Positions 3,676 to 17,566 of a DNA stretch of 32,242 nucleotides are shown piece by piece. Source of the DNA: Gammaproteobacteria bacterium (lineage in GTDB: Bacteria; Pseudomonadota; Gammaproteobacteria; DRJJ01); contig DRJJ01000157.1 of assembly GCA_011052255.1 (NCBI GenBank), positions 1-32,242 on the forward strand, given 5' to 3'. The first letter of the stretch is position 1, and each line of letters opens with the position of its first letter. The position numbers were made by a program, and so were the translations under genes. The notes beneath the pieces are model-generated. The model searched no databases. It was not told the origin of the DNA and saw only the letters and a program-made list of their open reading frames with translations.

Positions 3676-4569
3676 CTAATTCACTTTGCGCCGGCCTTCC
3701 AGACAAATCCATCCCTGTTCTTCGGTCATGGTTAGCCAGTCGACGGTATTGGCATAGGCCTGTTTAACAGACTCGGCCTGTTCAAGCAGTACCCCGGACA
3801 GTACCAGGCTGGCGCCTGGTTTGAGCAAACGGGCCAGTACCGGTGCCAGCTCCTGCAGAGGCCCGGCCAGTATGTTGGCGATCAGCAAGTCGACTTTGTG
3901 CTTGCTTTCTTTGCCCACTTCGGTGGGCGAGCAGACCAGCAGTCGGTCGGTGACCTGATTACGCTGAGCGTTGTCATGGCTGGCCTGCAGAGCCTGCGGA
4001 TCGTTGTCCACGGCGGTAACCTGATCGGCCTTTAGCAGCAAGGCGGCGATGGCCAGTACGCCAGAGCCACAACCGTAATCGATGACCTGTTTATTGGCAG
4101 GTGGATGCGCATCCAGCCAGCGCAGGCACAGGGCCGTGGTGGGGTGGGTGCCGGTACCGAAGGCCAGCCCCGGGTCGAGCATGATATTGACCGCATCGGG
4201 TTCGGGTGGCTGGTATACGCTGGGGCATATCCATAACCGCGTACCAAAGCGCATGGGTTTAAAGTCGTCCATCCATGCGCGCACCCAGTCACGATCCGCA
4301 ATGGTTTCAGTCTTCAGTTGGGGTTCTGCCGCATCGCTACCCAGCATGTTAAAAATGTCGCTGCTGATTTGTTCAGCATTGGCGTTGTCATCAAACAGGC
4401 CGGTTACCACGACTTGTTGCCAGATGGGGGTTTCACCCGGGCCGGGTTCCAGCAAAGGCTGATCGGCTGCATCGGAGAGGGTGACTGACAGGGCACCACA
4501 GGTTTCGAGTGTCAGTTCATAGAGACTGGCTGTGTCAGGATTGGGTGCATACAGGGAGATCTGGAACAT
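3676..4569 (-). CDS. prmA: Ribosomal protein L11 methyltransferase PrmA
   Basis: Motifs DWVRAWMDDFKPMRFGTRLWICPS, MLDPGLAFGTGTHPTT and VIDYGCGSGVLAIAA (SAM-binding site) are present. I place the start at the internal Met (MFQISLYAPN, ATG complement at 4567-4569), which aligns with the E. coli PrmA N-terminus (MPWIQLKL). The ORF-track start at 4626 would add 19 unconserved residues. Confidence 0.9.
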   Translation of the reverse strand: MFQISLYAPNPDTASLYELTLETCGALSVTLSDAADQPLLEPGPGETPIWQQVVVTGLFDDNANAEQISSDIFNMLGSDAAEPQLKTETIADRDWVRAWMDDFKPMRFGTRLWICPSVYQPPEPDAVNIMLDPGLAFGTGTHPTTALCLRWLDAHPPANKQVIDYGCGSGVLAIAALLLKADQVTAVDNDPQALQASHDNAQRNQVTDRLLVCSPTEVGKESKHKVDLLIANILAGPLQELAPVLARLLKPGASLVLSGVLLEQAESVKQAYANTVDWLTMTEEQGWICLEGRRKVN

Positions 4570-4673
4570 TAGTTTAAGGAGTCTCTGATTAATCATCAAG
4601 TAGTGGTGATTCCAGGGTAAGCTCAAGTCCTCTACTCGGCACCGTTTTCCAAGACCCTGTCATACTCTGCCAT

Positions 4674-4750
4674 ATACCATTTATACCATTTATACCATTT
4701 ATACCATTTATACCATTTATACCATTTATACCATTTATACCATTTATACC
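4674..4750. repeat. Perfect tandem repeat: 9-bp unit ATACCATTT, 8 full copies plus ATACC
   Basis: I counted it base by base. Copies start at 4674, 4683, 4692, 4701, 4710, 4719, 4728 and 4737, with a partial copy at 4746-4750 and no mismatches. It lies in the divergent prmA / chemoreceptor intergenic region. Read on the minus strand it gives eight TATAAAT (-10-like) strings facing prmA. Confidence 0.97.
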
Positions 4751-5362
4751 TTAGTAATTACAATATGTTAGCTTATTTTAAGTCGGCTGAAAGTGTCAGC
4801 AGGTGTCTGAAATAGGTCTGAAAACCGCACTTAGACTGCGCTCAAACTCCAACGATGTCCCTGTCCGTTCCGCTGCATTCCACTCACGTTCCATATCGGA
4901 TACAAACTAACACATATACTGAACATGCCAGTATCCTGGATTTACGCCAGCGGGCTTACCCGTTTCCTATGTATAGCTTCTAATAGCGTTAGTTATTCTG
5001 TATATAACGCTTAGCCCTTAACCCTGGCAATCCCTTATAGACAAACCACCTCATATTCATCTCACCAGGCCATGGTGTCCAGGCCAATACCCCGAAATAA
5101 GGTCAACCATGCCGCACCCATGGACCGTGTATTTGATTCTCAGCTGAATGGCTCTTTGAAGCGTCTCGCTGCGAACGGTGATGAGAAATGCGGGCCAGGA
5201 AAAAACACTAAAGAAAATGATGTAAGTGACGATATTGAAGAAAGTAGCGAAAATGACGAAACTGATGATTAAATAATTATTCTGTAAATCAATGGAATAA
5301 AAGATTAGCACGGTAGAAAACAGAGGATTAAAGCGACCTTTAATATTGTCAACGAGGAATAA

Positions 5363-7384
5363 ATGATGAAACTGACAGTCCAGAATAAATTATTCACAGG
5401 CTTTGCTGTAGTGCTGGTGCTTGTCGCACTGGTGTCAATCAACAACTATATCAAGATGGTCGCAAACAGCAACATTGAGCATCGTCTGTTGAAAGTACGC
5501 ATGCCAACGGTGATGGCCGGTATGCAGCTGGTCGATGGTATCCACCTCTCTCTGGCCGGGTTGCGCGGCTACATGATTCTGGGTAAAGACCCGGCCAAGG
5601 CTGATAAACTCAAGGCTGAACGTCAGCGTGGCTGGGTTCTAATCGACACAGCCCTGGCGGAAATGGACGAGTTTGCCAATAATTGGACTGACCCAAAAAA
5701 TATCGAGATGTTGAACCAGATGAAGGGCCTGGTGGAGCAGTTCCGTACCGCCCAGCAGGAAGTGGAAGACATCTCCCATACACCTGCAAACATCCCTGCT
5801 CTGAATCTGCTGCTGACCGAGGCTGCACCACGGGCTGCGAAAATTCTCGGTGCGGTTAGTGTCATCATTGATGAAGAGTCCACGCTGGATGCCACCCCGG
5901 AACGCAAAAAGCTATTGAAGTTGCTGGCCGACAGTCGTGGTTCCTTTGCTGTGGGCCTGGCCAATATTCGCGCCTTCTTGCTATCAGGCGATACAAAGTT
6001 TGCGAATAACTTTCAGGCCAAATGGAAGGTAAACGAGGCACGCTACAAAGAACTTCTGGGCATGACTGGCCTGTTTAATTCTACCCAGGCCCAGGCATGG
6101 GATACCTATAAAAGCGTGCGTGCCGAGTTTGTACCGCTGCCTGACAAAATGTTTGAGCTGCGCAGCGGCAAAGACTGGAACCTGGCCAACTACTGGTTAG
6201 GCACCAAGGCGGCACCCAGGGCCGGTGCCATTATGCGCATCCTCAAGGACATGCGCGCCTCGCAGGATAACCTGGCTGCAACAGACGAAGCATTGCTGGC
6301 AAGCGAATTCACCTCGATGAAAACCGTGATGATTATCGGCACGCTAATCGCCCTGGGCATAGGTGTGTTGGTTTCTGTTTTCATCAGCCGTATGATCACC
6401 GTACCGTTGAAAGCAGTAGTGGCTCGCGCCAAGGCTGTTGCCGGTGGCGATCTCACCGGTGCTGCCCTGGAGTCAAAAGGACATGATGAGCTGGCCGAGT
6501 TAAGCGGCGCGATTAACGACATGAATAGCAGTCTGCGGGACGTTGTTGAACGGATTACGGGCTCGGCGCAACATATAGGCAGTTCTTCCGAGGAGCTCTC
6601 GGCCATCACCGAGCAGACCAGCCAGAGTATCTACGAGCAGCAATCGCAGACCGAGCAGGTGGCCACGGCGATGAACGAGATGAGTGCCACGGTGCAGGAG
6701 GTGAGCAAGAACATCACCGGCACAGCACAGGCTGCTGAAGAAGCCAACAAGGAAACGATCGAGGGTCGCAAGGTGGTAGACGAAGCCATACAGGCCATTG
6801 AGCAACTTGCCGGGCAGATTGAAAACGCGTCGTCTGTGATACACCAGCTGGAACAGGACAGCGAAAATATCAGTGCGGTCATGGACGTTATTCGCGGTGT
6901 CGCCGAGCAGACTAACTTGCTGGCACTGAACGCCGCCATTGAGGCAGCCCGCGCCGGTGAGCAGGGCCGTGGCTTCGCGGTAGTGGCTGACGAGGTGCGT
7001 ACCCTGGCTGGCCGCACCCAGCAGTCCACGGAAGAAATCAACCAGGTGATCGAAAAACTCCAGGCCGGTTCCCGCAAGGCCGTAGAGGTAATGAACAAGA
7101 GTCGTGAAGAAGCCCAGTCCGTGGTCGATCACGCCACCAATGCGGGCACATCACTATCAGTGATTTCCTCGGCGGTGGAGCGCATCAACGGCATGAGTGC
7201 CCAGATCGCCAGCGCGGCGGAGCAGCAGAGCGCCACAGCCGAGGAGATCAATCGCAACATAACGAACATCACCGAAATGGCTAATGAGACCACCGCCGGG
7301 GCACAGCAAACGTCCACCGCCAGTGGTGACCTGGCCCGTCTGGGCACCGAGCTACAGGGATTGGTTGGGCAGTTCAAGGTTTGA
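5363..7384 (+). CDS. Methyl-accepting chemotaxis protein with a large (~290 aa) helical periplasmic sensor, a HAMP domain and an MA signalling domain
   Basis: The ORF is 673 aa with an SD-like GAGGA upstream of ATGATG. It has an N-terminal TM helix ([16 protein letters not shown]), a second TM ([20 protein letters not shown]) and a HAMP region ([19 protein letters not shown]...[13 protein letters not shown]). The hairpin tip [35 protein letters not shown] is highly conserved. Confidence 0.95.
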
Positions 7385-7423
7385 GAATACCCACCTACTA
7401 GAGAAATACATGGGAGTCAGACT

Positions 7424-8108
7424 ATGTCAACGCTAATGCAATCGGTCGATGAACGCACACGCCTCGCGGGTACAAACCGACTGGAAGTTTTGTTGTTCAG
7501 CCTGCGGGGTCATACCATACCCGTGATCAACCTGCCTAAATACTGCGGTATCCCGGTTGAGGAAAGCCGAGCATCATGATCGTTACCGAATACAACAAGC
7601 ACGTGCAGGGCTTTCTGGTGCATTCGGTAGACAGCATCATGCGTCTGGCGTGGGAAGACGTCAAAGTGCCGCCGTCCATGGTGGGCAACCAACACGGCGG
7701 CCTGGTTACCGCTGTGACCGAGTTGGCAGACAAAATCCTGATTATGATCATGGATGTCGAGAAGGTGTTGTCCGAGGCGGCAGGCTTGTACGATGACGAT
7801 ACAGTCTACGACGGGATCTCCTCTGTGGGTGATCAGAGCATGACAGTCCTGTACGTCGATGATTCCAGTGTAGCTCGACTGACCGGCTGCAATGCATTTT
7901 GACGGATATCGAAATGCCGGAGATGGATGGTTATGCCCTGACCCGCAAGATAAAAGACGATGATCGTTTCAAGGATCTTCCCGTCATCATGCATTCGTCT
8001 CTGAGTGCCGAGGCGAATCAGGCTCTGGGTGCGGGTGCAGATGCCTAAGTGGCAAAATTCGAACCGCGAGAGCTGGCCGCGACCCTGATGAAGATGATGC
8101 CTGCCTAA
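7424..8108 (+). pseudogene. cheV: Decayed cheV (CheW-like domain + receiver), with two internal deletions, a frameshift and an in-frame TAA
   Basis: My translation covers three frames. Frame 2 from the ATG at 7424 gives MSTLMQSVDERTRLAGTNRLEVLLFSL|RGHTIPVINLPKYCGIPVEE and then stops at 7577-7579. Frame 1 gives (P)SIMIVTEYNKHVQGFLVHSVDSIMRLAWEDVKVPP...DVEKVLSEA...VLYVDDSSVAR and then stops at 7900-7902. Frame 3 from about 7896 gives ILTDIEMPEMDGYALTRKIKDDDRFKDLPVIMHSSLSAEANQALGAGADA, then TAA (8046-8048), then VAKFEPRELAATLMKMMPA and a stop at 8106-8108. All segments are collinear with CheV proteins, but the FGINVFKVREV region and receiver beta1-beta3 are missing. The total is ~685 nt against ~930 nt expected. 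Confidence 0.8.
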
Positions 8109-8220
8109 GAAGATAAATGCCTGGGGCGCTCTGATCAGTGTACGGTATTCAAAGCAGATAACCACACCGCGGCTGTAGCGATACAGTTCGTGATATGTAG
8201 AGATTAACCAAGAGGATTGC

Positions 8221-8808
8221 ATGACAGAAAAGCAGAAAGACTATTTTACCAGCCGTGAGGCTGCCGAGCGACTGGATGTGTCTGTGAGCACCATTCAGCT
8301 TTGGACAAATAATGGTCTTTTACGTGCATGGACTACAGCAGGAGGACATCGGCGTATTGTGCGCAGTTCAGTCGAGGAAATACTAGGCCAGCAGCAGGCT
8401 GTTTCAAGTGTACAAAAACCGGATGAGCAATTGTCGATTGTTGTTGTGGAAGATAATGCACAACAGCTACGGCTGTATGAAAAACAATTTCTTGCCTGGC
8501 ACATGAATACGCGGGTGGTCATGGCCAAAGATGGTTATCAAGGCCTGATCAAGATTGGCAGCACCTTACCCGACGTCATTATCACCGATTTAAAGATGCC
8601 CAATATGGATGGCTTTCAGATGATCAGGGCGCTGAAAGAGTTGCCAGAGTTAGAGCACAGCATAATTATTGTTGTGAGTGGTCTTAAGGAAGACGAAGTA
8701 AAGACCAGGGGTGGATTACCGGAGGGCGTGTACTTGTTTACCAAACCGATCCCTTTCAAAAACCTGGAAACCCTGATACGTGAGAAAACACGTACAAAGG
8801 TTGCGTAA
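8221..8808 (+). CDS. Response regulator with an N-terminal excisionase/MerR-type HTH (HTH_17-like) and a C-terminal receiver domain
   Basis: The ORF is 195 aa with SD AGAGGA 5 nt upstream. The N-terminus (FTSREAAERLDVSVSTIQLWTNNGLLRAWTTAGGHRRIVRSSVEEIL) fits the excisionase-family HTH pattern. The receiver signatures are VVVEDN, VIITDLKMPNMDG (phospho-Asp), VVSG and FTKP. Confidence 0.85.
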   Translation: MTEKQKDYFTSREAAERLDVSVSTIQLWTNNGLLRAWTTAGGHRRIVRSSVEEILGQQQAVSSVQKPDEQLSIVVVEDNAQQLRLYEKQFLAWHMNTRVVMAKDGYQGLIKIGSTLPDVIITDLKMPNMDGFQMIRALKELPELEHSIIIVVSGLKEDEVKTRGGLPEGVYLFTKPIPFKNLETLIREKTRTKVA

Positions 8809-8856
8809 CACATTACAAGATAACTGAAGAACAGACAGAATTAGAGAGAGGAACTC

Positions 8857-11800
8857 ATGGCGGCATCCAGCGGATCGGGTCTGGCAGTAAAACTGGCTGC
8901 ATTGCAGGTGAACTTTAAGCAACAGCTTTCCGGCAAGCTTGCTGAAATTGAGCGCCTGTGGGCGGGCTGTTATCAGAATAATGCAAGCAGCGCCAATCTG
9001 GTGGATCTTCATCGCATGGTTCACAGCCTGGCCGGTTCCAGTGCTACCTTCGGTGCAGTGGCCGTGAGTCTCGTTGCGCGAGAAGTAGAACAGACGCTGA
9101 AACTTCTATTAAAAGAGCCTGGTCAGGCGTCGCCCTTTTCCAGTGAAATACAACAACAATTAGATGAATTGTTACCCAGGCTAAGGCAGGCTGCTGAAGA
9201 ATGGCAGCCTTCAAACATTTTCTCTATTCGACCCGGCGAATCAAAAGATCAGTGTGCTGGTAATCTTGTTTATCTGGTGGAAGATGATGAGCTTTTAGCG
9301 GCAGATCTGGTTGCAAAGCTTGAACAAGCCAACTATCGAGTGCAGCACTTTACTGAATTGAGTGGTTTGGAAGCCGCCTGTGAAAAGGAAATCCCGGTGG
9401 CAATCATCATGGATATGGTTTTCAGGGATGGTAATATTGTGGGTGCGGAGCATATTCCCAGAATAGTAGACAAGCTACACATCTCTCCGCTGGTGATCTT
9501 CATTTCAGAGCATGATGAAATCGAAGCCCGTCTTGCTGCAGTGCGCGCGGGTTCCCACCGCTTTTTCTGTAAACCACTGAAGGTGAATAAACTGATCCGG
9601 GCTCTGGACGGGTTGACGGCGCGGCAGGAAAAAACGCCCTATCGGGTATTGCTTATCGATGATGACGAAACCTTACTGGAGTACTGTGCGACTGTGCTGC
9701 GCGAAGCAGGTATGGATGTTGAAACTCTGTCCAACCCTCTGCAGGGTCTGAAAGTATTGACCGAGTTTAAACCGGATGTTGTCATCATGGATGTATATAT
9801 GTCTGAATGTTCAGGGCCTGAGCTGGCCCAGGTAATTCGCCAGGATGATGCGTGGGTCATGGTTCCTGTCATATTTTTATCCGTCGAATCGGATCTCAAT
9901 CGTCAACTGGCAGCCTTGAATCTTGGCGGTGACGACTTCCTGGTAAAACCCGTGGAGGCAGGTCATCTGGTGGCAGTGGTTACTGCCAGGGCAAAACGGG
10001 CACGCAGGACCATTCAACTCAATAAAGATCTGAAAAATGCGCTGAGAGAAAGCAAGTTCCAGCTTTTCACCATGGATCAGCATGACATTGTCAGTACGAC
10101 CGATGTCACCGGCCGAATTATCAGTGTGAATGACAAGTTCTGTGAAATCAGCGGCTACAGTCGCGAAGAATTGCTGGGGCAGAATCACCGCATACTCAAG
10201 TCAGGTTACCATCCCGACTCATTTTATAAAGATTTGTGGAACACCATCACCCAGGGCAAGGTTTGGCATGGCACTATATGTAACTGTAGAAGGGATGGCA
10301 ACGAATACTGGGTGGAATCCACCATCGTTCCCTTTCTGGATAATAACGGAAAACCCTATAAATATGTTCATGCCCGCACGGACATTACTGCACTCAGACA
10401 AAGTGAGGAACGCCTGCACAGTAGCCAGGTATTTGCCAACATCGGTACCTGGGACTGGCATATCAGGACAGGCGAGATGTACTGGTCGGTACTCGTTGGC
10501 CCGATGCTCGGTTATCAGCAAGGCGACCCTGATACCACCTACGAAAACTTCCTCTTCGCTGTGCATCCTGATGACCGCCAAATGGTGGAGAAGGCGGTGA
10601 ACAGCTGCATTGAGCATGGCTGCGAATTTAACATCGAATACCGGATAGTGTGGCCGGATGGCAGTGTGCATTGGCTGCAGGCAGGTGGCGATGTCCTGCG
10701 CACCGAGGCAGGTGAGCCTCTGCATATGCTGGGTGTGATTCAGGACATCAGTATTCGCAAGTGTGCCGAACGGGACCTGATCAAGACTCGCGATGAGGCA
10801 GAATATGCCAACCGTGCCAAGTCACAATTTCTCTCCAGTATGAGCCATGAGTTACGTACACCTATGAATGCCATCATAGGTTTTAGTCAGCTTTTAAGAA
10901 TCGATAACGATCAGCCTTTGAATGAATCCCAGCAGGAAAATGTCGATGAGATACTCAAGGCGAGTAACCATCTGCTGGAACTCATTAACGAGGTGCTGGA
11001 TCTGGCCAGGATCGAGACAGGGCGTATTGACCTTTCTATCGAGACAGTCGTGCCTGGTGAGGTCATAGCTGAATCCCTGCAGCTGATTACGCCGTTAGCA
11101 CAGAAACGTGGCATTGAAATCAGCTTGACTCTTGATGGGGCTAATATTACGTTTGAACAAGTGCTGCAGCAACATAATGCAGTACGGGCAGATCGTACCC
11201 GGCTCAAGCAAGTATTGCTTAACCTGTTGAGTAATGCGGTCAAATACAATTGTGAAAATGGCAAGCTCATCATAGCCTGTAACAACACCGAAAATAACCA
11301 GACCCGGATCAGCATTTCCGATACGGGTACCGGCCTTACCATGGAGCAGCAGTCTCAGTTATTCAAGGTCTTTAATCGACTGGGGGCGGAACAGTCAAAT
11401 ATTGAAGGCACGGGTGTTGGTCTGGTAATCACCAGGAATATCGTTGAACTCATGGGTGGTAGCATCGGTGTAGAGAGTCAGTCAGGCAAGGGCAGCACCT
11501 TCTGGATCGAATTACCAAATGCTACCTTGCATTCTGCACAAAAGAAGGAGTCTGATAAAAAGGGAGCCATGCAAGTACATACTATCATCAGACCTGAATA
11601 CAAGCATACCGTGCTCTATATAGAAGACAATCCCGCAAACCTGCGGCTGGTAGCTCAATTGCTGGGACGTTTGCCTGATATTCATATGTGGAGCGCCCAT
11701 GAACCGTTACTGGGTCTTGAACTGGCGGTGGAACATAACCCCGACCTGATTTTGCTGGATATTAATCTGCCGGGCATGAATGGTTTTGAGGTGCTTAACC

Positions 11801-11979
11801 AGCTTCGACAGAGGGAAGCAACCCGTGAAACACCGGTTATCGCCATTAGCGCCAACGCCATGCCTGGAGATATTAAAAAGGGGTTGGAAGCAGGTTTTGA
11901 TGAATACATCACCAAACCGATTGATGTTGAGGCCCTGTTGCAGGCTTTGGATACTATGCTGACAGGTAATAACAAATAA
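8857..11979 (+). CDS. Soluble hybrid sensor histidine kinase: Hpt-REC-REC-PAS-PAS-HisKA-HATPase_c-REC
   Basis: The ORF is 1040 aa with SD GAGAGAGGA upstream and no hydrophobic TM segment. The Hpt motif is HRMVHSLAGSSATFG (H56, codon 9022-9024). REC1 has LVEDDE...IIMDMVF...FCKP, and REC2 has LLIDDDE...VIMDVYM...LVKP. Two PAS modules are present (GQNHRILKSGYH...; IGTWDWHIRTGEMYWS). The H-box is FLSSMSHELRTPMNAI (H664, codon 10846-10848), the N-box LLNLLSNAVKYN, G1 DTGTGL and G2 GTGVGLVITRNIVELMGG. The C-terminal REC has LYIEDNPANLRL...LLDINLPGMNG...ITKP. Confidence 0.92.
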   Translation: MAASSGSGLAVKLAALQVNFKQQLSGKLAEIERLWAGCYQNNASSANLVDLHRMVHSLAGSSATFGAVAVSLVAREVEQTLKLLLKEPGQASPFSSEIQQQLDELLPRLRQAAEEWQPSNIFSIRPGESKDQCAGNLVYLVEDDELLAADLVAKLEQANYRVQHFTELSGLEAACEKEIPVAIIMDMVFRDGNIVGAEHIPRIVDKLHISPLVIFISEHDEIEARLAAVRAGSHRFFCKPLKVNKLIRALDGLTARQEKTPYRVLLIDDDETLLEYCATVLREAGMDVETLSNPLQGLKVLTEFKPDVVIMDVYMSECSGPELAQVIRQDDAWVMVPVIFLSVESDLNRQLAALNLGGDDFLVKPVEAGHLVAVVTARAKRARRTIQLNKDLKNALRESKFQLFTMDQHDIVSTTDVTGRIISVNDKFCEISGYSREELLGQNHRILKSGYHPDSFYKDLWNTITQGKVWHGTICNCRRDGNEYWVESTIVPFLDNNGKPYKYVHARTDITALRQSEERLHSSQVFANIGTWDWHIRTGEMYWSVLVGPMLGYQQGDPDTTYENFLFAVHPDDRQMVEKAVNSCIEHGCEFNIEYRIVWPDGSVHWLQAGGDVLRTEAGEPLHMLGVIQDISIRKCAERDLIKTRDEAEYANRAKSQFLSSMSHELRTPMNAIIGFSQLLRIDNDQPLNESQQENVDEILKASNHLLELINEVLDLARIETGRIDLSIETVVPGEVIAESLQLITPLAQKRGIEISLTLDGANITFEQVLQQHNAVRADRTRLKQVLLNLLSNAVKYNCENGKLIIACNNTENNQTRISISDTGTGLTMEQQSQLFKVFNRLGAEQSNIEGTGVGLVITRNIVELMGGSIGVESQSGKGSTFWIELPNATLHSAQKKESDKKGAMQVHTIIRPEYKHTVLYIEDNPANLRLVAQLLGRLPDIHMWSAHEPLLGLELAVEHNPDLILLDINLPGMNGFEVLNQLRQREATRETPVIAISANAMPGDIKKGLEAGFDEYITKPIDVEALLQALDTMLTGNNK

Positions 11980-11984
11980 AAGAC

Positions 11985-12878
11985 ATGAATACAATATCTG
12001 ATCATCTATACAGGTGGTGCATATGGGCAGTCTTGCTTCTGGGTTTTGACATGCTAGTGGCTTGTTCACAAGATGACAATTCGAGAACTGTAAAGATCCT
12101 TAAGATTGCGGTACTGCCTGATCAGAGTGAGTCGCAACTGCACAGTAAATATCAGCCCTTGCAAGATTATATAAAATCTCGCACTGGCCTGAATTCTACG
12201 TTGCTGATACCTGCATCGTACAAAGAGTTGCTGCAATGGTTTGATGACAAGCATATTGATATGGCATTGTTTGGTGGCGTTACTTACGTAAAGGCTCATT
12301 TGCAGAGTAACGCAATTCCGTTAGTAATACGCGATGTGGATGGTCGTTTCAGAAGTATCGCGATAGTGAGCGCGAATAATCCTGCGAGCAGTTTACAGGA
12401 CATTAAAGGTGCTTCACTGGCATTTGGATCTCGGCTCTCTACCTCTGGCCACTTAATGCCAAGATACTTTTTACGGCAGAATAATATCATTCCTGAAGAA
12501 TTTTTTAGCAAGATTCTATATTCTGGCGCTCACGACGTCACTGCCGAATGGGTTCGCGATGGAAAAGTGGAGGCTGGGTTAACCCATTCGGGCATCGCAA
12601 ACGAAATGTTCCTTGACGGACGATTAGGCAAGGATAAGGTTAAGGTTATCTGGAAATCTCCGCCTTTTGCTGATTATGTGTGGGCAGTGCAGCAAGACAT
12701 CAGTAAGCAGCAAAGAACTATGATTCGGGATACTTTTCTGTACATGAATCAAAATGATGAAGGCAAACTATTGCTACAAAGCCTCGGCGCAAATTATTAC
12801 ATCCCGGCAGGAAATGACGATTTTAGCAAGCTGGAGCAGATTATCCTGCAAATGGAGCAACATGGACATAAACAATGA
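11985..12878 (+). CDS. PhnD-family (phosphonate/phosphite-type) periplasmic substrate-binding lipoprotein, orphan with no transporter partners
   Basis: The ORF is 297 aa. It has a signal peptide with lipobox LVAC (Cys27). The body is collinear with PhnD-like binding proteins: LKIAVLPDQS...YQPLQDYI...IDMALFGGVTYV...LKGASLAFGSRLSTSGHLMPRYFL...YSGAHDVTAEWVRDGKVEAG...VIWKSPPFADYVWAV. It starts 5 bp after the upstream stop, and its stop overlaps the next ATG (ATGA at 12875-12878). Confidence 0.82.
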   Translation: MNTISDHLYRWCIWAVLLLGFDMLVACSQDDNSRTVKILKIAVLPDQSESQLHSKYQPLQDYIKSRTGLNSTLLIPASYKELLQWFDDKHIDMALFGGVTYVKAHLQSNAIPLVIRDVDGRFRSIAIVSANNPASSLQDIKGASLAFGSRLSTSGHLMPRYFLRQNNIIPEEFFSKILYSGAHDVTAEWVRDGKVEAGLTHSGIANEMFLDGRLGKDKVKVIWKSPPFADYVWAVQQDISKQQRTMIRDTFLYMNQNDEGKLLLQSLGANYYIPAGNDDFSKLEQIILQMEQHGHKQ

Positions 12879-15127
12879 GAGTACTGGATACTACACTGGA
12901 AAGAACACAAATTAACCGTAGCGTATACGGGTTACTGGGCATGGTGGTTATTGTCTTCGTAACGATCCTCATTGTGCTCCAGTTACAACAGAATGAAATT
13001 CGGAATAGAGATGCTTTAACTAATGATTACCACCTGGCTATAAGTCTAAAGAGCCTGGCGCTACTTGGTGCAATTAATGCAACCAGAATATGGTTCCGTG
13101 ATCATAGTATTGAGTACAAAAATAAAACCACCACTTCAGAATATACTGTAATCGAGTCACAGAGACATACGGAATTCTCGGAAAGAGACAAAACAGGTGC
13201 GCTTAAGAACGAAATCGAGAAACTTGTTGATGAAATCAATGCGACTCAGAGGCAATATGCAGACCCTGAATTTACTTCTATCAGCTCATTACTGGAAAAG
13301 GCGAACAGGGAAGTTCAGGCTAATTTAAGCAAGATGCAATCTACAGGCAAATATGCCAGTAAAATAATTGATGATAGTGTAGAGCTATTAATCCCGGTCA
13401 TCCATCAGATGCAGCGTCTGCATAAGCATGCTTACCAGCAAATGCGGCTGTCAATAGATGATTTTCAGCGGGTCAAAGAGATTCAAATTATTAGTCTGAT
13501 TATTGTGCTGGTGATAGTTGGCCTGTTTGGCGTTATAAGGATGTTACGTCATGTTCGTCACACGCTAAAAAATCTGACTAAGACACAGAATGAACTGCAA
13601 GAACGAGAACAGAACTTTAGCTTGTTAACCCGTAACATGCAAGATGGGGTTCTTGTGAACTTTGAAGGCAAGCATGTTTTTGCAAATAAAAGTATGGCTA
13701 TGATGCTAGGTTATGAAAAACCAGAGGAACTAACTGGAACCAGGATCGAGGATATTGTGCACCCTGATGATGTAGATATGGTGTTAAGCCGATTTCGATC
13801 ACGAATGAAAGGAAACGAAAAGCCGAGTCAATACGAAACCAGATTTATTACCAAAGCGGGTGATGTGTTAACTGTCGATCTCAGTGCCGCAAAGACCTTA
13901 TGGAAGGGAAGGCCTGCCGGGATGGTTACAGTCAGGGATATTACCGAGCGTAAAAAAGATGAGCAGGCACTACAGCAATTCAAGTATACGCTGGATCAAA
14001 CTCTTGATTGTGTATATCTGTTCGATGCCGAGAGTCTTCTCTTTATCTATGCAAATGAAGGTGCTATGCGGCAGATAGGTTATACTCGCGATGAACTGTT
14101 AGCCTTGCACCCTTATGACATCAAGCCGGAATATACCGAACAACAATTTCGCGATATTATCACTCTGCTACTGAATGGCGAGCAGTCATCACTCAATTTC
14201 GAGACTATCCATCAGCATAAGAATGGCCACTGTGTACCAGTGGAGGTTTTTATACAATTAATTTCATCGGAAGCGGGCGTGGCGCGCTTTATAGCCATTG
14301 TGCGTGATATTACCGATCGTAAGCAGGCAGAAACTGAACTCGACAAACATCGTGAGCATCTCGAAGAATTGGTTAAGGAACGCACTGTTGACTTGATGAC
14401 TACCCGTGATGAGGCTGAAAAATCCAATGCCGCCAAATCCGAGTTTCTCTCCCGCATGAGCCATGAATTGCGCACACCCCTGAATGCTATACTCGGGTTT
14501 GGCCAAATACTTGAGATGGATGCCGAGGGGTTTAGCGACACTCAGCGAGCTAACGTTAAAGAGATTACTGATGCCGGCCAACACCTGTTGGAACTTATTA
14601 ATGAAGTGCTGGATCTGGCCAAAATCGAATCCGGTAAGCTGGATATTTCTCTGGAGATAGTTTCTGTCGATGATCTGTTGCAGCAGTGTCTTACTATGAT
14701 ACAACCTCAGGCAAAAGCATGCCAGCTTGAAATCATTGATCTCATCAGTAAGCAGGGATATTACGTACAGACCGACTTCACTCGTGCAAAACAGGTGCTG
14801 TTAAATCTTTTATCCAATGCGGTGAAATACAACTGCTGCCAGGGACGTATTACGCTGACTAGCGAGGTTGTAGACAAAAATCGACTTCGTATTTTTGTTA
14901 CAGATATGGGGAGCGGTTTGACGGAAGCGGAAATAGAAAGATTGTTTACGCCTTTTGAACGCATCGATTCTACGAATAATATTGAAGGTACAGGTATTGG
15001 TCTTGTTATCACCAAACACCTGATTGAACTCATGGGCGGTACAATTGGTGTTAAGAGCACACAGGGTGAAGGCAGTACCTTTTGGGTGGAGTTCGGACTG
15101 GCACGGGCACTGTCTGCTGGTGCATAA
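12875..15127 (+). CDS. Membrane sensor histidine kinase: TM, ~165-aa periplasmic helical region, TM, PAS-PAS-HisKA-HATPase_c
   Basis: The ORF is 750 aa. TM1 is LLGMVVIVFVTILIVLQL and TM2 is IISLIIVLVIVGLFGVI. Two PAS modules each end in the typical RDITERK/RDITDRK linker. The H-box is FLSRMSHELRTPLNAI (H530, codon 14462-14464), the N-box LLNLLSNAVKYN, G1 DMGSGL and G2 GTGIGLVITKHLIELMGG. There is no receiver or Hpt domain. Confidence 0.92.
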   Translation: MRVLDTTLERTQINRSVYGLLGMVVIVFVTILIVLQLQQNEIRNRDALTNDYHLAISLKSLALLGAINATRIWFRDHSIEYKNKTTTSEYTVIESQRHTEFSERDKTGALKNEIEKLVDEINATQRQYADPEFTSISSLLEKANREVQANLSKMQSTGKYASKIIDDSVELLIPVIHQMQRLHKHAYQQMRLSIDDFQRVKEIQIISLIIVLVIVGLFGVIRMLRHVRHTLKNLTKTQNELQEREQNFSLLTRNMQDGVLVNFEGKHVFANKSMAMMLGYEKPEELTGTRIEDIVHPDDVDMVLSRFRSRMKGNEKPSQYETRFITKAGDVLTVDLSAAKTLWKGRPAGMVTVRDITERKKDEQALQQFKYTLDQTLDCVYLFDAESLLFIYANEGAMRQIGYTRDELLALHPYDIKPEYTEQQFRDIITLLLNGEQSSLNFETIHQHKNGHCVPVEVFIQLISSEAGVARFIAIVRDITDRKQAETELDKHREHLEELVKERTVDLMTTRDEAEKSNAAKSEFLSRMSHELRTPLNAILGFGQILEMDAEGFSDTQRANVKEITDAGQHLLELINEVLDLAKIESGKLDISLEIVSVDDLLQQCLTMIQPQAKACQLEIIDLISKQGYYVQTDFTRAKQVLLNLLSNAVKYNCCQGRITLTSEVVDKNRLRIFVTDMGSGLTEAEIERLFTPFERIDSTNNIEGTGIGLVITKHLIELMGGTIGVKSTQGEGSTFWVEFGLARALSAGA

Positions 15128-15137
15128 GACGAAAAGC

Positions 15138-16223
15138 ATGAGCGAAATCAACAATCAAATGAATGTCGATCCAGGAAAGGCCAGTATCCTGGTTGTGGAT
15201 GATGAGGCTGCCAATGTCAGGCTTCTGGAAAAAATGCTTGCGACGAGAGGGTATAGCAATGTGGTTTGTACCTTGGATCCAGATCAGGTCTTGCCACTGT
15301 ACCAGAAATATAAAAGTGACTTGATTCTACTGGATATCAATATGCCGAAGCTGGATGGTTATGGCGTGATGGGCCAACTTAATAAGCTGACGAAAGGGTG
15401 TCCACCACCCATCCTGATATTAACAGCACAGCATGACCAGAGCTCTCGCCAGCGTGCACTGGATAGTGGGGCTCGTGATTATGTCACGAAACCTTTCGAT
15501 GCCGATGAGTTGTTGTCTCGCGTTCGCAATTTGCTGGAAGTTCAGATGGCGCAAAAGTTTATGCATCGTCAAAATGAAATCCTTGAACAGAAGGTGCGGG
15601 AACGAACGCAGGCTATGCATGACACACGCTTGCAGGTTGTGCGTTGTCTAGGTCGAGCGGCAGAGTACCGCGACAATGAAACCGGCCTGCATATCATCCG
15701 TATGAGTAAGATGGCGGTGGTGATAGGCTCGGCTGCAGGCATGGATGATGAACAGTGTGATCTGCTGTTAAATGCAGCCCCGATGCACGATATCGGCAAG
15801 ATTGGCATACCGGATCATATACTACTTAAGCCCGACAAGTTTGAACCCGAAGAATGGATGATTATGCAAACTCACGTTCAGATTGGCGCGGATATTCTTT
15901 CAGGAGACAATTCGGATTTAATGACCATGGCACGTGATATCGCCATTACTCACCATGAAAAATGGAATGGCAAGGGTTACCCCAACGGTCTTGAAGGCGA
16001 GGCAATACCGCTGACCGGTCGTATCACCGCACTGGCCGATGTATTTGATGCGCTGACTTCTGAGCGGCCTTACAAAAAGGCCTGGCCGGTGGAGAAGGCC
16101 GTGGAATTAATAAAAGAAGAAAGCGCAAAGCATTTTGATCCCATGCTTGTTGAGATTTTACTTGAAAGGCTTCCTGAGATTATCAAAATCAAGGAAAAAT
16201 ACGCCGAACCGGTTAACAAATAA
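15138..16223 (+). CDS. RpfG-type response regulator: receiver + HD-GYP c-di-GMP phosphodiesterase domain
   Basis: I place the start at MSEINNQ (ATG 15138-15140), 10 bp after the kinase stop. The ORF-track start at 15024 lies inside the kinase gene. REC signatures are ILVVDDEAANV, LILLDINMPKLDG and YVTKP. The HD-GYP signatures are PMHDIGKIGIPD and ITHHEKWNGKGYPNGL. Confidence 0.92.
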   Translation: MSEINNQMNVDPGKASILVVDDEAANVRLLEKMLATRGYSNVVCTLDPDQVLPLYQKYKSDLILLDINMPKLDGYGVMGQLNKLTKGCPPPILILTAQHDQSSRQRALDSGARDYVTKPFDADELLSRVRNLLEVQMAQKFMHRQNEILEQKVRERTQAMHDTRLQVVRCLGRAAEYRDNETGLHIIRMSKMAVVIGSAAGMDDEQCDLLLNAAPMHDIGKIGIPDHILLKPDKFEPEEWMIMQTHVQIGADILSGDNSDLMTMARDIAITHHEKWNGKGYPNGLEGEAIPLTGRITALADVFDALTSERPYKKAWPVEKAVELIKEESAKHFDPMLVEILLERLPEIIKIKEKYAEPVNK

Positions 16224-16225
16224 GG

Positions 16226-17566
16226 CTAAAGGCCGAGTTTCTTCTCCAGGTAATGGATGTTTGTGCCACCGGCCTGAAACGCGCTGTCATCGAGCAGGTC
16301 GCAGTGCAGCGGGATGTTGGTTTTAATCCCTTCGATGACAATTTCTGACAGCGCCATACGCATACGCCGCAGTGCAGATTCGCGGGTGTCACCGTAGGCA
16401 ATCAGCTTGCCGATCATGGAATCATAATGCGGTGGCACACGATAGTTGTCATAGATGTGCGTGTCGATGCGAATACCGGGTCCGCCGGGAGCATGAAATT
16501 CTTCTATGGTTCCGGGGCAGGGCATGAAGTTGGTCGGGTCTTCGGCGTTCAGGCGACATTCAATCGCGTGGCCCTTGATCTTGATGTCTTCCTGGCGGTA
16601 GCTTAACGGTTCGCCGGCTGCGATCAGCAGTTGTTCCTTGATGATGTCCACGCCGGTAATTTCTTCGGTGACCGGGTGTTCAACCTGCACGCGGGTGTTC
16701 ATTTCAATGAAATAGAATTCGTCATTTTCATACAGAAACTCAAAGGTGCCGGCACCGCGATAACCGATATCAAGACAGGCCTTGGTACACAGCGCTCCCA
16801 TGCGTTGCCTGACTTCTTCGGTAATGCCGGGGGCGGGTGCTTCTTCTATTACTTTCTGGTGGCGGCGTTGCATGGAGCAATCACGCTCACCCAGACAGAT
16901 GGCATTGCCGTGGGTGTCGGCCATGACCTGGAATTCAACGTGGCGCGGTGTCTCCAGGTATTTTTCCATGTAGACCATGTCGTTGCCAAAGTTGGCGGCC
17001 GCTTCGCTGCGTGTAAGAGAGATGGCATTGAGCAGGTTGGCTTCACTGTGTACTACGCGCATGCCGCGCCCACCCCCACCACCGGATGCCTTGATGATGA
17101 TCGGGTAGCCGATTCGGTTGGCGATCTCCATGTTGGTGTCGGCATCATCACCCAGTGGCCCGTCAGACCCGGGTACGCAGGGGACGCCGGTTTCTTTCAT
17201 GGCGCGGATAGCGGAGACCTTGTCACCCATGATGCGGATAGTCTCGGCCTTGGGGCCAATGAAGATGAAGCCGCTTTGTTCAACGCGTTCAGCGAAATCT
17301 GCATTTTCAGACAGGAAGCCATAACCGGGATGTATCGCCACCGCATCGGTTACCTCGGCGGCGCTGATCAGTGCGGGCACGTTCAGGTAGCTGTCGGCTG
17401 ACGGGGGTGGCCCGATGCAGACCGATTCATCGGCCAGTAAGACATGTTTCAGGTCACTGTCGGCGGTGGAGTGTACGGCCACAGTTTTGATACCCATTTC
17501 GTGGCAGGCGCGCAGAATCCGCAGCGCAATTTCTCCCCGATTGGCAATCACGATTTTATCTAGCAT
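16226..17566 (-). CDS. accC: Acetyl-CoA carboxylase biotin carboxylase subunit
   Basis: The 446-aa ORF starts [21 protein letters not shown] and contains [10 protein letters not shown] and [14 protein letters not shown]. It lies downstream of accB. Confidence 0.97.

Follow-up and report, generated by a model that had tools for sequence, protein, structure and literature searches.

A block of five genes at positions 8221–16,223 was analyzed in a 32,242-nt stretch of DNA (contig DRJJ01000157.1; hereafter the window). The window derives from the marine-sediment metagenome contig ERZ508539 NODE_100, which was binned as a gammaproteobacterial metagenome-assembled genome (MAG), has a coverage of 3.9x, and is also present in GCA_006240775.1. 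The five genes are a real, conserved bacterial signaling cassette and an uncharacterized variant of known systems. The features of the block, assigned with Pfam unless another source is given, are as follows.

8221..8808, plus strand: gene 1, response regulator with an N-terminal HTH_17/MerR-type helix-turn-helix (HTH) domain (excisionase/BldC-like; residues 8–58) and a C-terminal receiver (REC; Asp123)
8857..11979, plus strand: gene 2, soluble hub hybrid kinase Hpt-REC-REC-PAS-PAS-HisKA-HATPase_c-REC (Hpt, histidine phosphotransfer)
8911–9192, plus strand: Hpt domain of gene 2 (residues 19–112; 39.3 bits) with His56 (codon 9022–9024) in HSLAGSS
Within gene 2, plus strand: receivers REC1 (Asp186), REC2 (Asp312) and REC3 (Asp968), from Pfam and a residue check
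10078–10740, plus strand: PAS-PAS region of gene 2 (PAS/PAS_3)
10846–10848, plus strand: codon of His664 in the SHELRTP motif of the gene 2 HisKA domain (HisKA 78.3 bits, HATPase_c 94.7 bits)
11985..12878, plus strand: gene 3, lipoprotein solute-binding protein of the PhnD/PtxB family (PF12974 Phosphonate-bd, 207.7 bits)
12875..15127, plus strand: gene 4, histidine kinase with two transmembrane (TM) segments, PAS-PAS-HisKA-HATPase_c, no receiver
12986–13483, plus strand: periplasmic helical domain of gene 4 (residues 38–203), from an AlphaFold2 (AF2) model; no Pfam model
14462–14464, plus strand: codon of His530 in the SHELRTP motif of the gene 4 HisKA domain (HisKA 69.8 bits, HATPase_c 88.1 bits)
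15138..16223, plus strand: gene 5, receiver (Asp66) joined to a predicted HD-GYP phosphodiesterase (REC 95.1 bits; HD_5 110.4 bits; Pfam HD_5/HD)

Direct reading of the sequence gave the five same-strand open reading frames (ORFs) and the spacers of 48, 5, −4 (an ATGA overlap) and 10 bp that the first-pass annotation of this DNA had described. The 10-bp spacer depends on the start chosen for gene 5: the longest ORF begins with a TTG at 15024, the gene caller selected 15066, and the ATG at 15138 yields the 10-bp distance. Pfam returned all five of the proposed domain architectures. The codons assigned earlier to two autophosphorylating histidines and one Hpt histidine specify His664, His530, and His56, and each of the five predicted receiver domains keeps its acidic pair, phosphoacceptor Asp, Ser/Thr, and Lys. 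The block had also been called AT-rich on the basis of six hand counts, all of which are exact. The guanine-plus-cytosine content (G+C) of the block is 46.3% compared with 52.9% for the remaining window. It is lowest in genes 3 and 4 (43.3–43.4%) and is 46–49% in genes 1, 2, and 5. The G+C at third codon positions is 0.43–0.44 in genes 3 and 4 versus 0.58–0.66 in most flanking genes. A Pfam scan of the window ORFs of at least 100 residues detected no permease, ABC ATPase, or GGDEF domain, in agreement with the same annotation.

A metagenome scan anchored on gene 1 returned 80 loci (fetched loci are designated L plus a number), and the 31 that carried at least 9 kb of downstream sequence were informative. 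Orthologues of the hub kinase directly follow the gene 1 homologue in 25 of the 31, which makes this the most tightly linked pair, and orthologues of gene 5 that are 68–81% identical occur in 13. The downstream regions also encode a STAS protein (14/31), a REC-PP2C(-HATPase_c_2) protein (15/31), and a soluble MCP-signal protein (10/31). In representatives analyzed with Pfam, the gene order is HTH_17-REC, an [±Hpt]-REC-REC-PAS-PAS-[GAF]-HisKA-HATPase-REC hub, REC-HD-GYP, MCPsignal, STAS, and REC-SpoIIE-HATPase_c_2. Genes 1, 2, and 5 of the window are related to their counterparts in L088, L102, L136, L146, and other loci by identities of 65–85% (HTH), 61–76% (kinase core), and 68–81% (HD-GYP). 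This core cassette recurs in marine-sediment Gammaproteobacteria. The window has its order of HTH_17-REC, hub, (sensor kinases), and REC-HD-GYP with orthologues that are at least 60% identical. The MCP-STAS-REC-PP2C tail is absent from the window and present in L007 (9056–12,307), L010 (8576–11,793), L083 (18,457–20,897), and L088 (9503–12,895).

L007 and L010, which belong to two other MAGs, have all five gene families arranged as in the window, at 50–75% identity, and L083 has four of the five. The earlier proposal that the five genes are not a chance juxtaposition is borne out by this conservation; the proposal that they are a single unit needs revision because they are a composite of the core (genes 1, 2, and 5) and an optional pair (genes 3 and 4). 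Few cassettes contain the PhnD-type pair (L007, L010, L083, L153, and L119), and in others the slot is taken by a different sensor kinase: one fused to SBP_bac_3, one fused to Peripla_BP_6, or a dCache kinase accompanied by a Peripla_BP_5 protein. Gene 5 is 81% identical to its orthologue in L083 and 80% identical to that in L088, which has no binding-protein gene, compared with 75% in L007 and 73% in L010. The lowest G+C of genes 3 and 4, the closer match of gene 5 to L083 and L088, and the other kinases in the slot identify genes 3 and 4 as a plug-in. The window operon is thus a core cassette that lacks the tail and has gained a sensor pair between its hub and HD-GYP genes.

The N-terminal Hpt domain, which had been listed among the unusual components of the block, is present in the window hub and is a minority variant among hub kinases. 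Besides the window, L083 has it; tblastn detected it in 5 of the 31 informative loci, and the hubs of L007, L010, L088, L089, and L090 lack it.

Two loci have flagellar neighbors. L088, which comes from the same sample as the window, has fliL and fliM after the cassette, and L004 has fliP before it; these neighbors hint at control of flagellar motility. L004 (3297–13,969) lies in an alphaproteobacterial Emcibacter MAG and carries two different binding protein-kinase pairs in tandem. Its hub core is 71% identical to gene 2 and its gene 4-like core is 62% identical to gene 4. Such high identity across classes suggests that the cassette may have been transferred horizontally.

Gene 3 encodes a lipoprotein with the lipobox LVAC, in which Cys27 is nearly invariant among homologues, and a conserved STSGH anion-binding loop. 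The protein scores 178.4 against TIGR01098, the phosphate/phosphite/phosphonate ABC binding protein subfamily (cut-off 112), and falls below the cut-offs of the PhnD equivalog TIGR03431 (149.6 bits; cut-off 261.1) and the selenate family TIGR04553 (200.3; cut-off 250). Its closest solved relative is PhnD1 (7S6G), followed by PtxB and PhnD2; ArrX and AioX are farther away, and XAC2383 is very distant. The E values are 4e-35 to 4e-32 for PhnD1 and PtxB, 2e-17 for ArrX, 4e-7 for AioX, and 3.6e-7 for XAC2383 in a profile comparison. The 7S6G structure is that of a picocyanobacterial PhnD1 that binds phosphate, phosphite, and methylphosphonate (PMC10284923).

A profile scan with gene 3, limited to one genome per species, returned 80 loci, and the 77 that carried the gene were analyzed. 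They represent Gamma- and Alphaproteobacteria, Nitrospinota, Planctomycetota, Acidobacteriota, and other phyla. Of the 77 relatives, 74 have a large same-strand ORF that begins shortly after the binding-protein gene. This ORF encodes a histidine kinase in 57 (49 identified by tblastn and 8 of other subtypes by Pfam) and a GGDEF-EAL protein in 13, so that a signaling transducer follows in 70; Pfam was run on 22 of the 25 downstream ORFs that tblastn had left unclassified. No transporter genes lie near the binding-protein gene in the window, L083, L085, or L086. In L089, an ABC_membrane/ABC_tran gene is located about 9 kb upstream with several genes between. These sequence relationships lead us to regard gene 3 as a binding protein devoted to sensing, which would act through gene 4 and whose predicted ligand is a small compound of the oxyanion type.

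The periplasmic segment of gene 4 has conserved features of its own. The closer gene 4 homologues share an invariant Tyr52-His53-Leu54 motif and invariant Gln178, Leu182, and His183. The N-terminal regions of the wider set of downstream ORFs share this motif: His48, Leu168, and His169 are nearly invariant and Gln164 is invariant (numbering of the first aligned sequence). The AF2 model of the sensor region, built from a 20-sequence alignment, is all-helical with a predicted local distance difference test score of 87; the chain runs from TM1 into a four-helix bundle and back into TM2. A fold search with this model gave no match at E ≤ 0.001 and only weak, generic helical-bundle matches that include Tar, KinB, and NarQ. 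When the N-terminal 240 residues were used in a word-indexed protein search, nothing was matched, not even the gene 4 protein; an exhaustive search with the N-terminal region gave only 45 cluster representatives. The domain, common to the kinases and GGDEF-EAL proteins that follow PhnD-type genes, is a candidate new sensor/docking family.

The HTH domain of gene 1 matches the BldC model (E 9.5e-8) and also an excisionase model. The HTH_17-REC architecture is shared by at least 527 homologous clusters at E ≤ 1e-10, the best 120 of which are 59–78% identical to gene 1. BldC forms cooperative multimers on direct repeats (PMC9938897). A direct-repeat array is present in the DNA to the left of the block, together with two further features.

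5213..5270, plus strand: about six 9-bp direct repeats with a unit of approximately RTGAYGAAA, candidate operator (Tandem Repeats Finder, period 9, 5.9 copies)
5363..7384, plus strand: gene for a membrane chemoreceptor (MCP; 4HB_MCP-HAMP-MCPsignal, Pfam)
7424..8107, plus strand: remnant of cheV (CheW plus REC) in at least three reading frames

The array lies 95–150 nt upstream of the MCP start codon, and the motif TGAYGANNNTGAYGA has 8 matches in the window compared with 0.71 expected. Arrays in relatives contain 2–6 copies, lie 50–110 nt before the HTH_17-REC start codon, and often abut a TTGACA hexamer. Of 74 regions upstream of gene 1 homologues, 35 have exact TGAYGAnnnTGAYGA pairs, all on the gene strand; 200 shuffles gave none. 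Successive TGAYGA units in the 74 upstream regions are 9, 18, 27, or 36 nt apart. In the full set of fetched loci, such pairs are nearly restricted to the position upstream of HTH_17-REC genes; further arrays occur in L137 (9918–9950), L104 (about 5713), and L108 (about 519). The 5213–5270 array is proposed as the operator of gene 1 because the HTH domain matches the excisionase and BldC models and BldC binds direct repeats. The first-pass annotation saw no obvious regulated target genes in the window, and the MCP gene with its upstream array is now a candidate target. Either the MCP gene, the cheV remnant, and genes 1–5 would be a single autoregulated unit, or the MCP gene would be a regulated target. 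In both cases, the position of the array probably places the left end of the unit or regulon about 3 kb farther out, at 5213.

Other readings of the repeats were considered. A coding artefact is unlikely: the TGA triplet recurs in one frame, the region is intergenic, and a ribosome-binding site lies downstream. The array could act as an RNA element, although it often adjoins the TTGACA hexamer. The MCP gene upstream of gene 1 in L007 was compared with that in the window; the two are only 44% identical in the conserved signaling domain, and orthology was not established.

On balance, we lean toward a modular multi-kinase phosphorelay that sets cyclic di-GMP (c-di-GMP) turnover and transcription and is built from two conserved units, the core cassette and the sensor pair. 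The hub kinase would read cytoplasmic cues through its two PAS domains and autophosphorylate on His664. The phosphoryl group would pass to Asp968 of the C-terminal receiver and on to His56 of the hub's own Hpt domain, which would serve the receivers of the REC-HD-GYP protein (Asp66) and of the HTH_17-REC regulator (Asp123). Phosphorylation of the gene 5 receiver would turn on c-di-GMP hydrolysis, and phosphorylation of gene 1 would alter its binding to the head-to-tail array of 9-bp repeats upstream of the MCP gene, which would control either the MCP-(cheV)-gene 1–5 unit or the MCP promoter. Gene 3 is predicted to capture a small periplasmic oxyanion of the phosphite, phosphate, phosphonate, or arsenate type, to dock on the periplasmic four-helix bundle of gene 4, and to modulate autophosphorylation on His530. 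Gene 4 has no receiver or cognate regulator of its own and would feed the cassette, most likely via Asp186 and Asp312 of the hub or by direct transfer to the output receivers. In this way, a chemical cue from outside the cell would be integrated with an internal one. This branched phosphotransfer wiring, first put forward in the earlier annotation, is plausible.

Several observations weigh against this scheme. The links between particular kinases and particular receivers are ones that we infer. In L009, a binding protein-kinase pair adjoins a REC-HD-GYP gene, and the approximately 19 kb examined contain neither a hub nor an HTH_17-REC gene; this arrangement favors a simpler, direct path from kinase to HD-GYP protein. 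Most hub orthologues lack the Hpt domain, so the His-Asp-His-Asp route is not a conserved property of the cassette. The first hub receiver of L007 and L010 has a degenerate acidic pocket and may be a pseudo-receiver in these relatives. The transcriptional arm has its own difficulties. There is no exact array directly upstream of gene 1 in the window, where the nearest trace is a degenerate repeat pair at 8086–8100 within the cheV remnant. The MCP gene has a host-like G+C of 55.5% that differs from that of genes 1–5, which makes co-transcription uncertain, and the cheV remnant that separates the two is broken. Scans of 4500–16,600 gave 22 sigma-70 promoters versus 17.7 ± 4.3 in shuffled sequence and 11 terminators versus 8.6 ± 3.3, in neither case better than the shuffles.

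A rather unlikely alternative that still has to be taken seriously is that two insulated pathways share the operon. Genes 3, 4, and 5 would be a three-component system and genes 1 and 2 a separate one, with no cross-talk and no integration. Paralogous two-component pathways are normally insulated, and the tight linkage of gene 1 to the hub fits such a division. The L009 arrangement also fits: its pair lies next to a GGDEF gene and a divergently transcribed gene for a REC-HD-GYP protein that shares 66% identity with gene 5. The distribution of gene 5 speaks against it: most of the cassettes with a gene 5 orthologue are without a PhnD-type pair, so gene 5 is part of the core, and its G+C resembles that of genes 1 and 2, unlike that of genes 3 and 4. 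The two kinase cores, in genes 2 and 4, share 50% identity, and the helices around their phosphorylated histidines are almost the same, which argues for shared partners; some other cassettes have several receiver-less sensor kinases beside a single hub.

The modular phosphorelay also assumes that gene 5 hydrolyzes c-di-GMP. It is improbable that the protein instead acts on another cyclic dinucleotide, such as 3'3'-cyclic GMP-AMP (3'3'-cGAMP), or that it is mainly a protein-protein regulator like the degenerate HnoD. The second-best solved match of gene 5, 5Z7C, is a 3'3'-cGAMP-specific phosphodiesterase (E 3.3e-39). The best match to the HD-GYP domain by a wide margin is the 4MCW chain (E 5e-61), which is PmGH, the active c-di-GMP phosphodiesterase of Persephonella marina. 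HnoD acts by inhibition of HnoB and not by catalysis (PMC6335343), whereas the motifs of gene 5 are intact, unlike those of HnoD, with HDIGK at residue 217 and GYP at residue 280.

It is very improbable that the block was acquired horizontally and is now decaying, a chance or relic assemblage that serves no coherent function in this organism. Such a history would agree with the low G+C, with the position between prmA and accC, which are close neighbors in other Proteobacteria, with the absence of the tail, and with the lack of an array directly upstream of gene 1. It would also agree with the state of the neighboring cheV, whose ORF fragments cover CheW positions 27–65 and 71–137 and REC positions 48–94 in different frames; visual inspection of the sequence placed the C-terminal end near 8107. 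This remnant between the MCP gene and gene 1 is probably a pseudogene, and an assembly error is possible at the coverage of this contig. Against decay of the block itself, the five ORFs are intact over 8 kb with all catalytic residues kept, compared with at least two frame breaks in the 0.7 kb of cheV, and the gene order is maintained in L007 and L010 at identities of only 50–75%. Hardest of all to credit is that gene 3 is an ordinary phosphonate or phosphite transport binding protein with its permease and ATPase genes elsewhere, as its strong PF12974 match and TIGR01098 score might suggest, given the window without a permease or ATPase gene, the score below the PhnD equivalog cut-off, the 4-bp overlap with the kinase gene, and the transducers encoded downstream in its relatives.

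The first-pass annotation recognized this set of components in no characterized system. That statement was too strong, and AioX/AioS, ArrX, the Hno network, and RpfC/RpfG are precedents. One of the closest is the Hno network of Shewanella oneidensis, in which HnoX/HnoK and HnoS feed HnoB, HnoC, and HnoD, so that two histidine kinases converge on a branched set of response regulators, as proposed here. The likeness is at the level of domain architecture only and consists of a MerR-type HTH with a receiver (HnoC), a REC-HD-GYP protein (HnoD), and two kinases. The Hno network adjusts c-di-GMP turnover and regulates transcription of its own genes by feedback (PMC6335343, PMC8738867, PMC9938897). 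The differences are several. The Hno network has an H-NOX sensor and a REC-EAL protein (HnoB), and no HNOB or EAL domain was found in the scanned window ORFs. HnoD is degenerate, whereas the HD-GYP domain of gene 5 has intact catalytic motifs. HnoC is reported to recognize palindromes, in contrast to the direct-repeat array found in the window. In place of the Hno kinases, the window has a large Hpt-REC-REC hybrid and a membrane kinase predicted to depend on a binding protein.

RpfC/RpfG of the Xanthomonas diffusible signal factor (DSF) system relays from a hybrid kinase with a receiver and an Hpt domain to a REC-HD-GYP c-di-GMP phosphodiesterase. Like RpfG, gene 5 joins a receiver to an HD-GYP domain in which both the HD and the GYP motif are intact. 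RpfC differs from gene 2 in being membrane-bound, in its C-terminal Hpt domain, in having no binding protein, and in its linkage to the DSF synthase RpfF. Gene 2 is a soluble kinase with an N-terminal Hpt domain and two extra receivers.

Free periplasmic binding proteins that dock on membrane transducers, as proposed for genes 3 and 4, are also found in XAC2383-XAC2382, TorT/TorS, and MBP/Tar. In both Tar and TorS, the periplasmic domain offered to the binding protein is helical. TorT and MBP are members of binding-protein families other than that of gene 3. Within PF12974, the AioX/AioS/AioR and ArrX systems likewise have a binding-protein gene beside a sensor kinase gene and no transporter (PMC8050422; PDB 6ESK, 6X6B). 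A binding protein of this type stimulates its two-component system upon oxyanion binding (PMC8050422). The output of AioX/AioS/AioR differs, being a sigma-54 activator that controls arsenic redox enzymes; the Pfam scans of the window turned up neither a Sigma54_activat domain nor aioBA-like genes. The sensor domain of AioS is Cache-like, unlike the four-helix bundle of the gene 4 model, and gene 3 is much closer to PhnD1 and PtxB than to AioX or ArrX. XAC2383-XAC2382 of Xanthomonas citri reportedly pairs a PF12974 protein with a diguanylate cyclase (PMC12271599, PMC10942540), which recalls the gene 3 relatives paired with GGDEF-EAL proteins, although XAC2383 is distant from gene 3. 

The cassettes of the relatives resemble a further system, HptB-HsbR-HsbA of Pseudomonas, in which several kinases act through an Hpt protein on a REC-PP2C-kinase and a STAS antagonist encoded near flagellar genes (PMC5085249). 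The HptB pathway controls motility, biofilm, and c-di-GMP (PMC5085249). Cassettes of the relatives include STAS and REC-PP2C-HATPase_c_2 genes and sometimes adjoin fliL/fliM or fliP; the window differs in having neither gene and in its HD-GYP and HTH_17-REC outputs. With no H-NOX domain, EAL domain, sigma-54 regulator, or DSF synthase, the window fits the full definition of none of these families. A literature search found no description of the cassette and no paper joining HD-GYP, phosphonate, periplasmic binding protein, and histidine kinase.

If the modular phosphorelay is correct, signal-integrating networks of this kind would be assembled from interchangeable parts. Different periplasmic sensors would plug into one conserved hub, whose outputs would be c-di-GMP, transcription, and, in relatives, partner switching. 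We hold more tentatively the possibility that the locus represents a widespread, uncharacterized platform of marine-sediment Gammaproteobacteria. Such a platform would combine a REC-REC-PAS hub with interchangeable sensors, among them a sensory PhnD clade acting on an undescribed four-helix domain, and a BldC/Xis-like HTH_17-REC regulator that polymerizes head-to-tail on 9-bp arrays. To our knowledge, this mode of DNA binding, head-to-tail polymerization on direct-repeat arrays, is undescribed for response regulators. Two groups are worth defining as families: the sensory, non-transport PhnD-type clade with its partner periplasmic domain that has no Pfam model, and the abundant HTH_17-REC regulators tied to the 9-bp direct-repeat array. 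The components all come from uncultured organisms and each principle has precedents, so the value of the locus is comparative and hypothesis-generating rather than surprising.

The block is flanked by housekeeping genes on both sides.

Left flank: dusB, a DUF3426 gene, and prmA
4627–16225: an 11.6-kb segment with the MCP gene, the cheV remnant, and the five-gene block, bounded by prmA and accC
Right flank: accC, accB, aroQ, a thioredoxin-like (AhpC/TSA family) gene, dsbD, cutA, fxsA, groEL, glnE, and ilvE

The order aroQ-accB-accC-prmA-DUF3426-dusB is that of Pseudomonas and its relatives, and prmA and accC are near neighbors in other Proteobacteria. The 4627–16,225 segment looks inserted because aroQ-accB-accC and prmA-DUF3426-dusB are close neighbors in Pseudomonas and its relatives; by comparison with that order, it resembles an insertion that split prmA from accC. 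Homologues of prmA, accC, accB, dusB, and the DUF3426 gene were found in none of the fetched loci. Only 2 bp separate the gene 5 stop (16,223) from the accC stop (16,226), which leaves no space for a terminator. Rfam detected no family in the window and therefore no c-di-GMP riboswitch. A second repeat lies in AT-rich intergenic DNA at 4673–4750, 47 nt upstream of the prmA start (minus strand). It is a perfect tandem repeat of TATACCATT in 8.7 copies (100% matches), and it shares the 9-bp period of the 5213–5270 array with an unrelated sequence.

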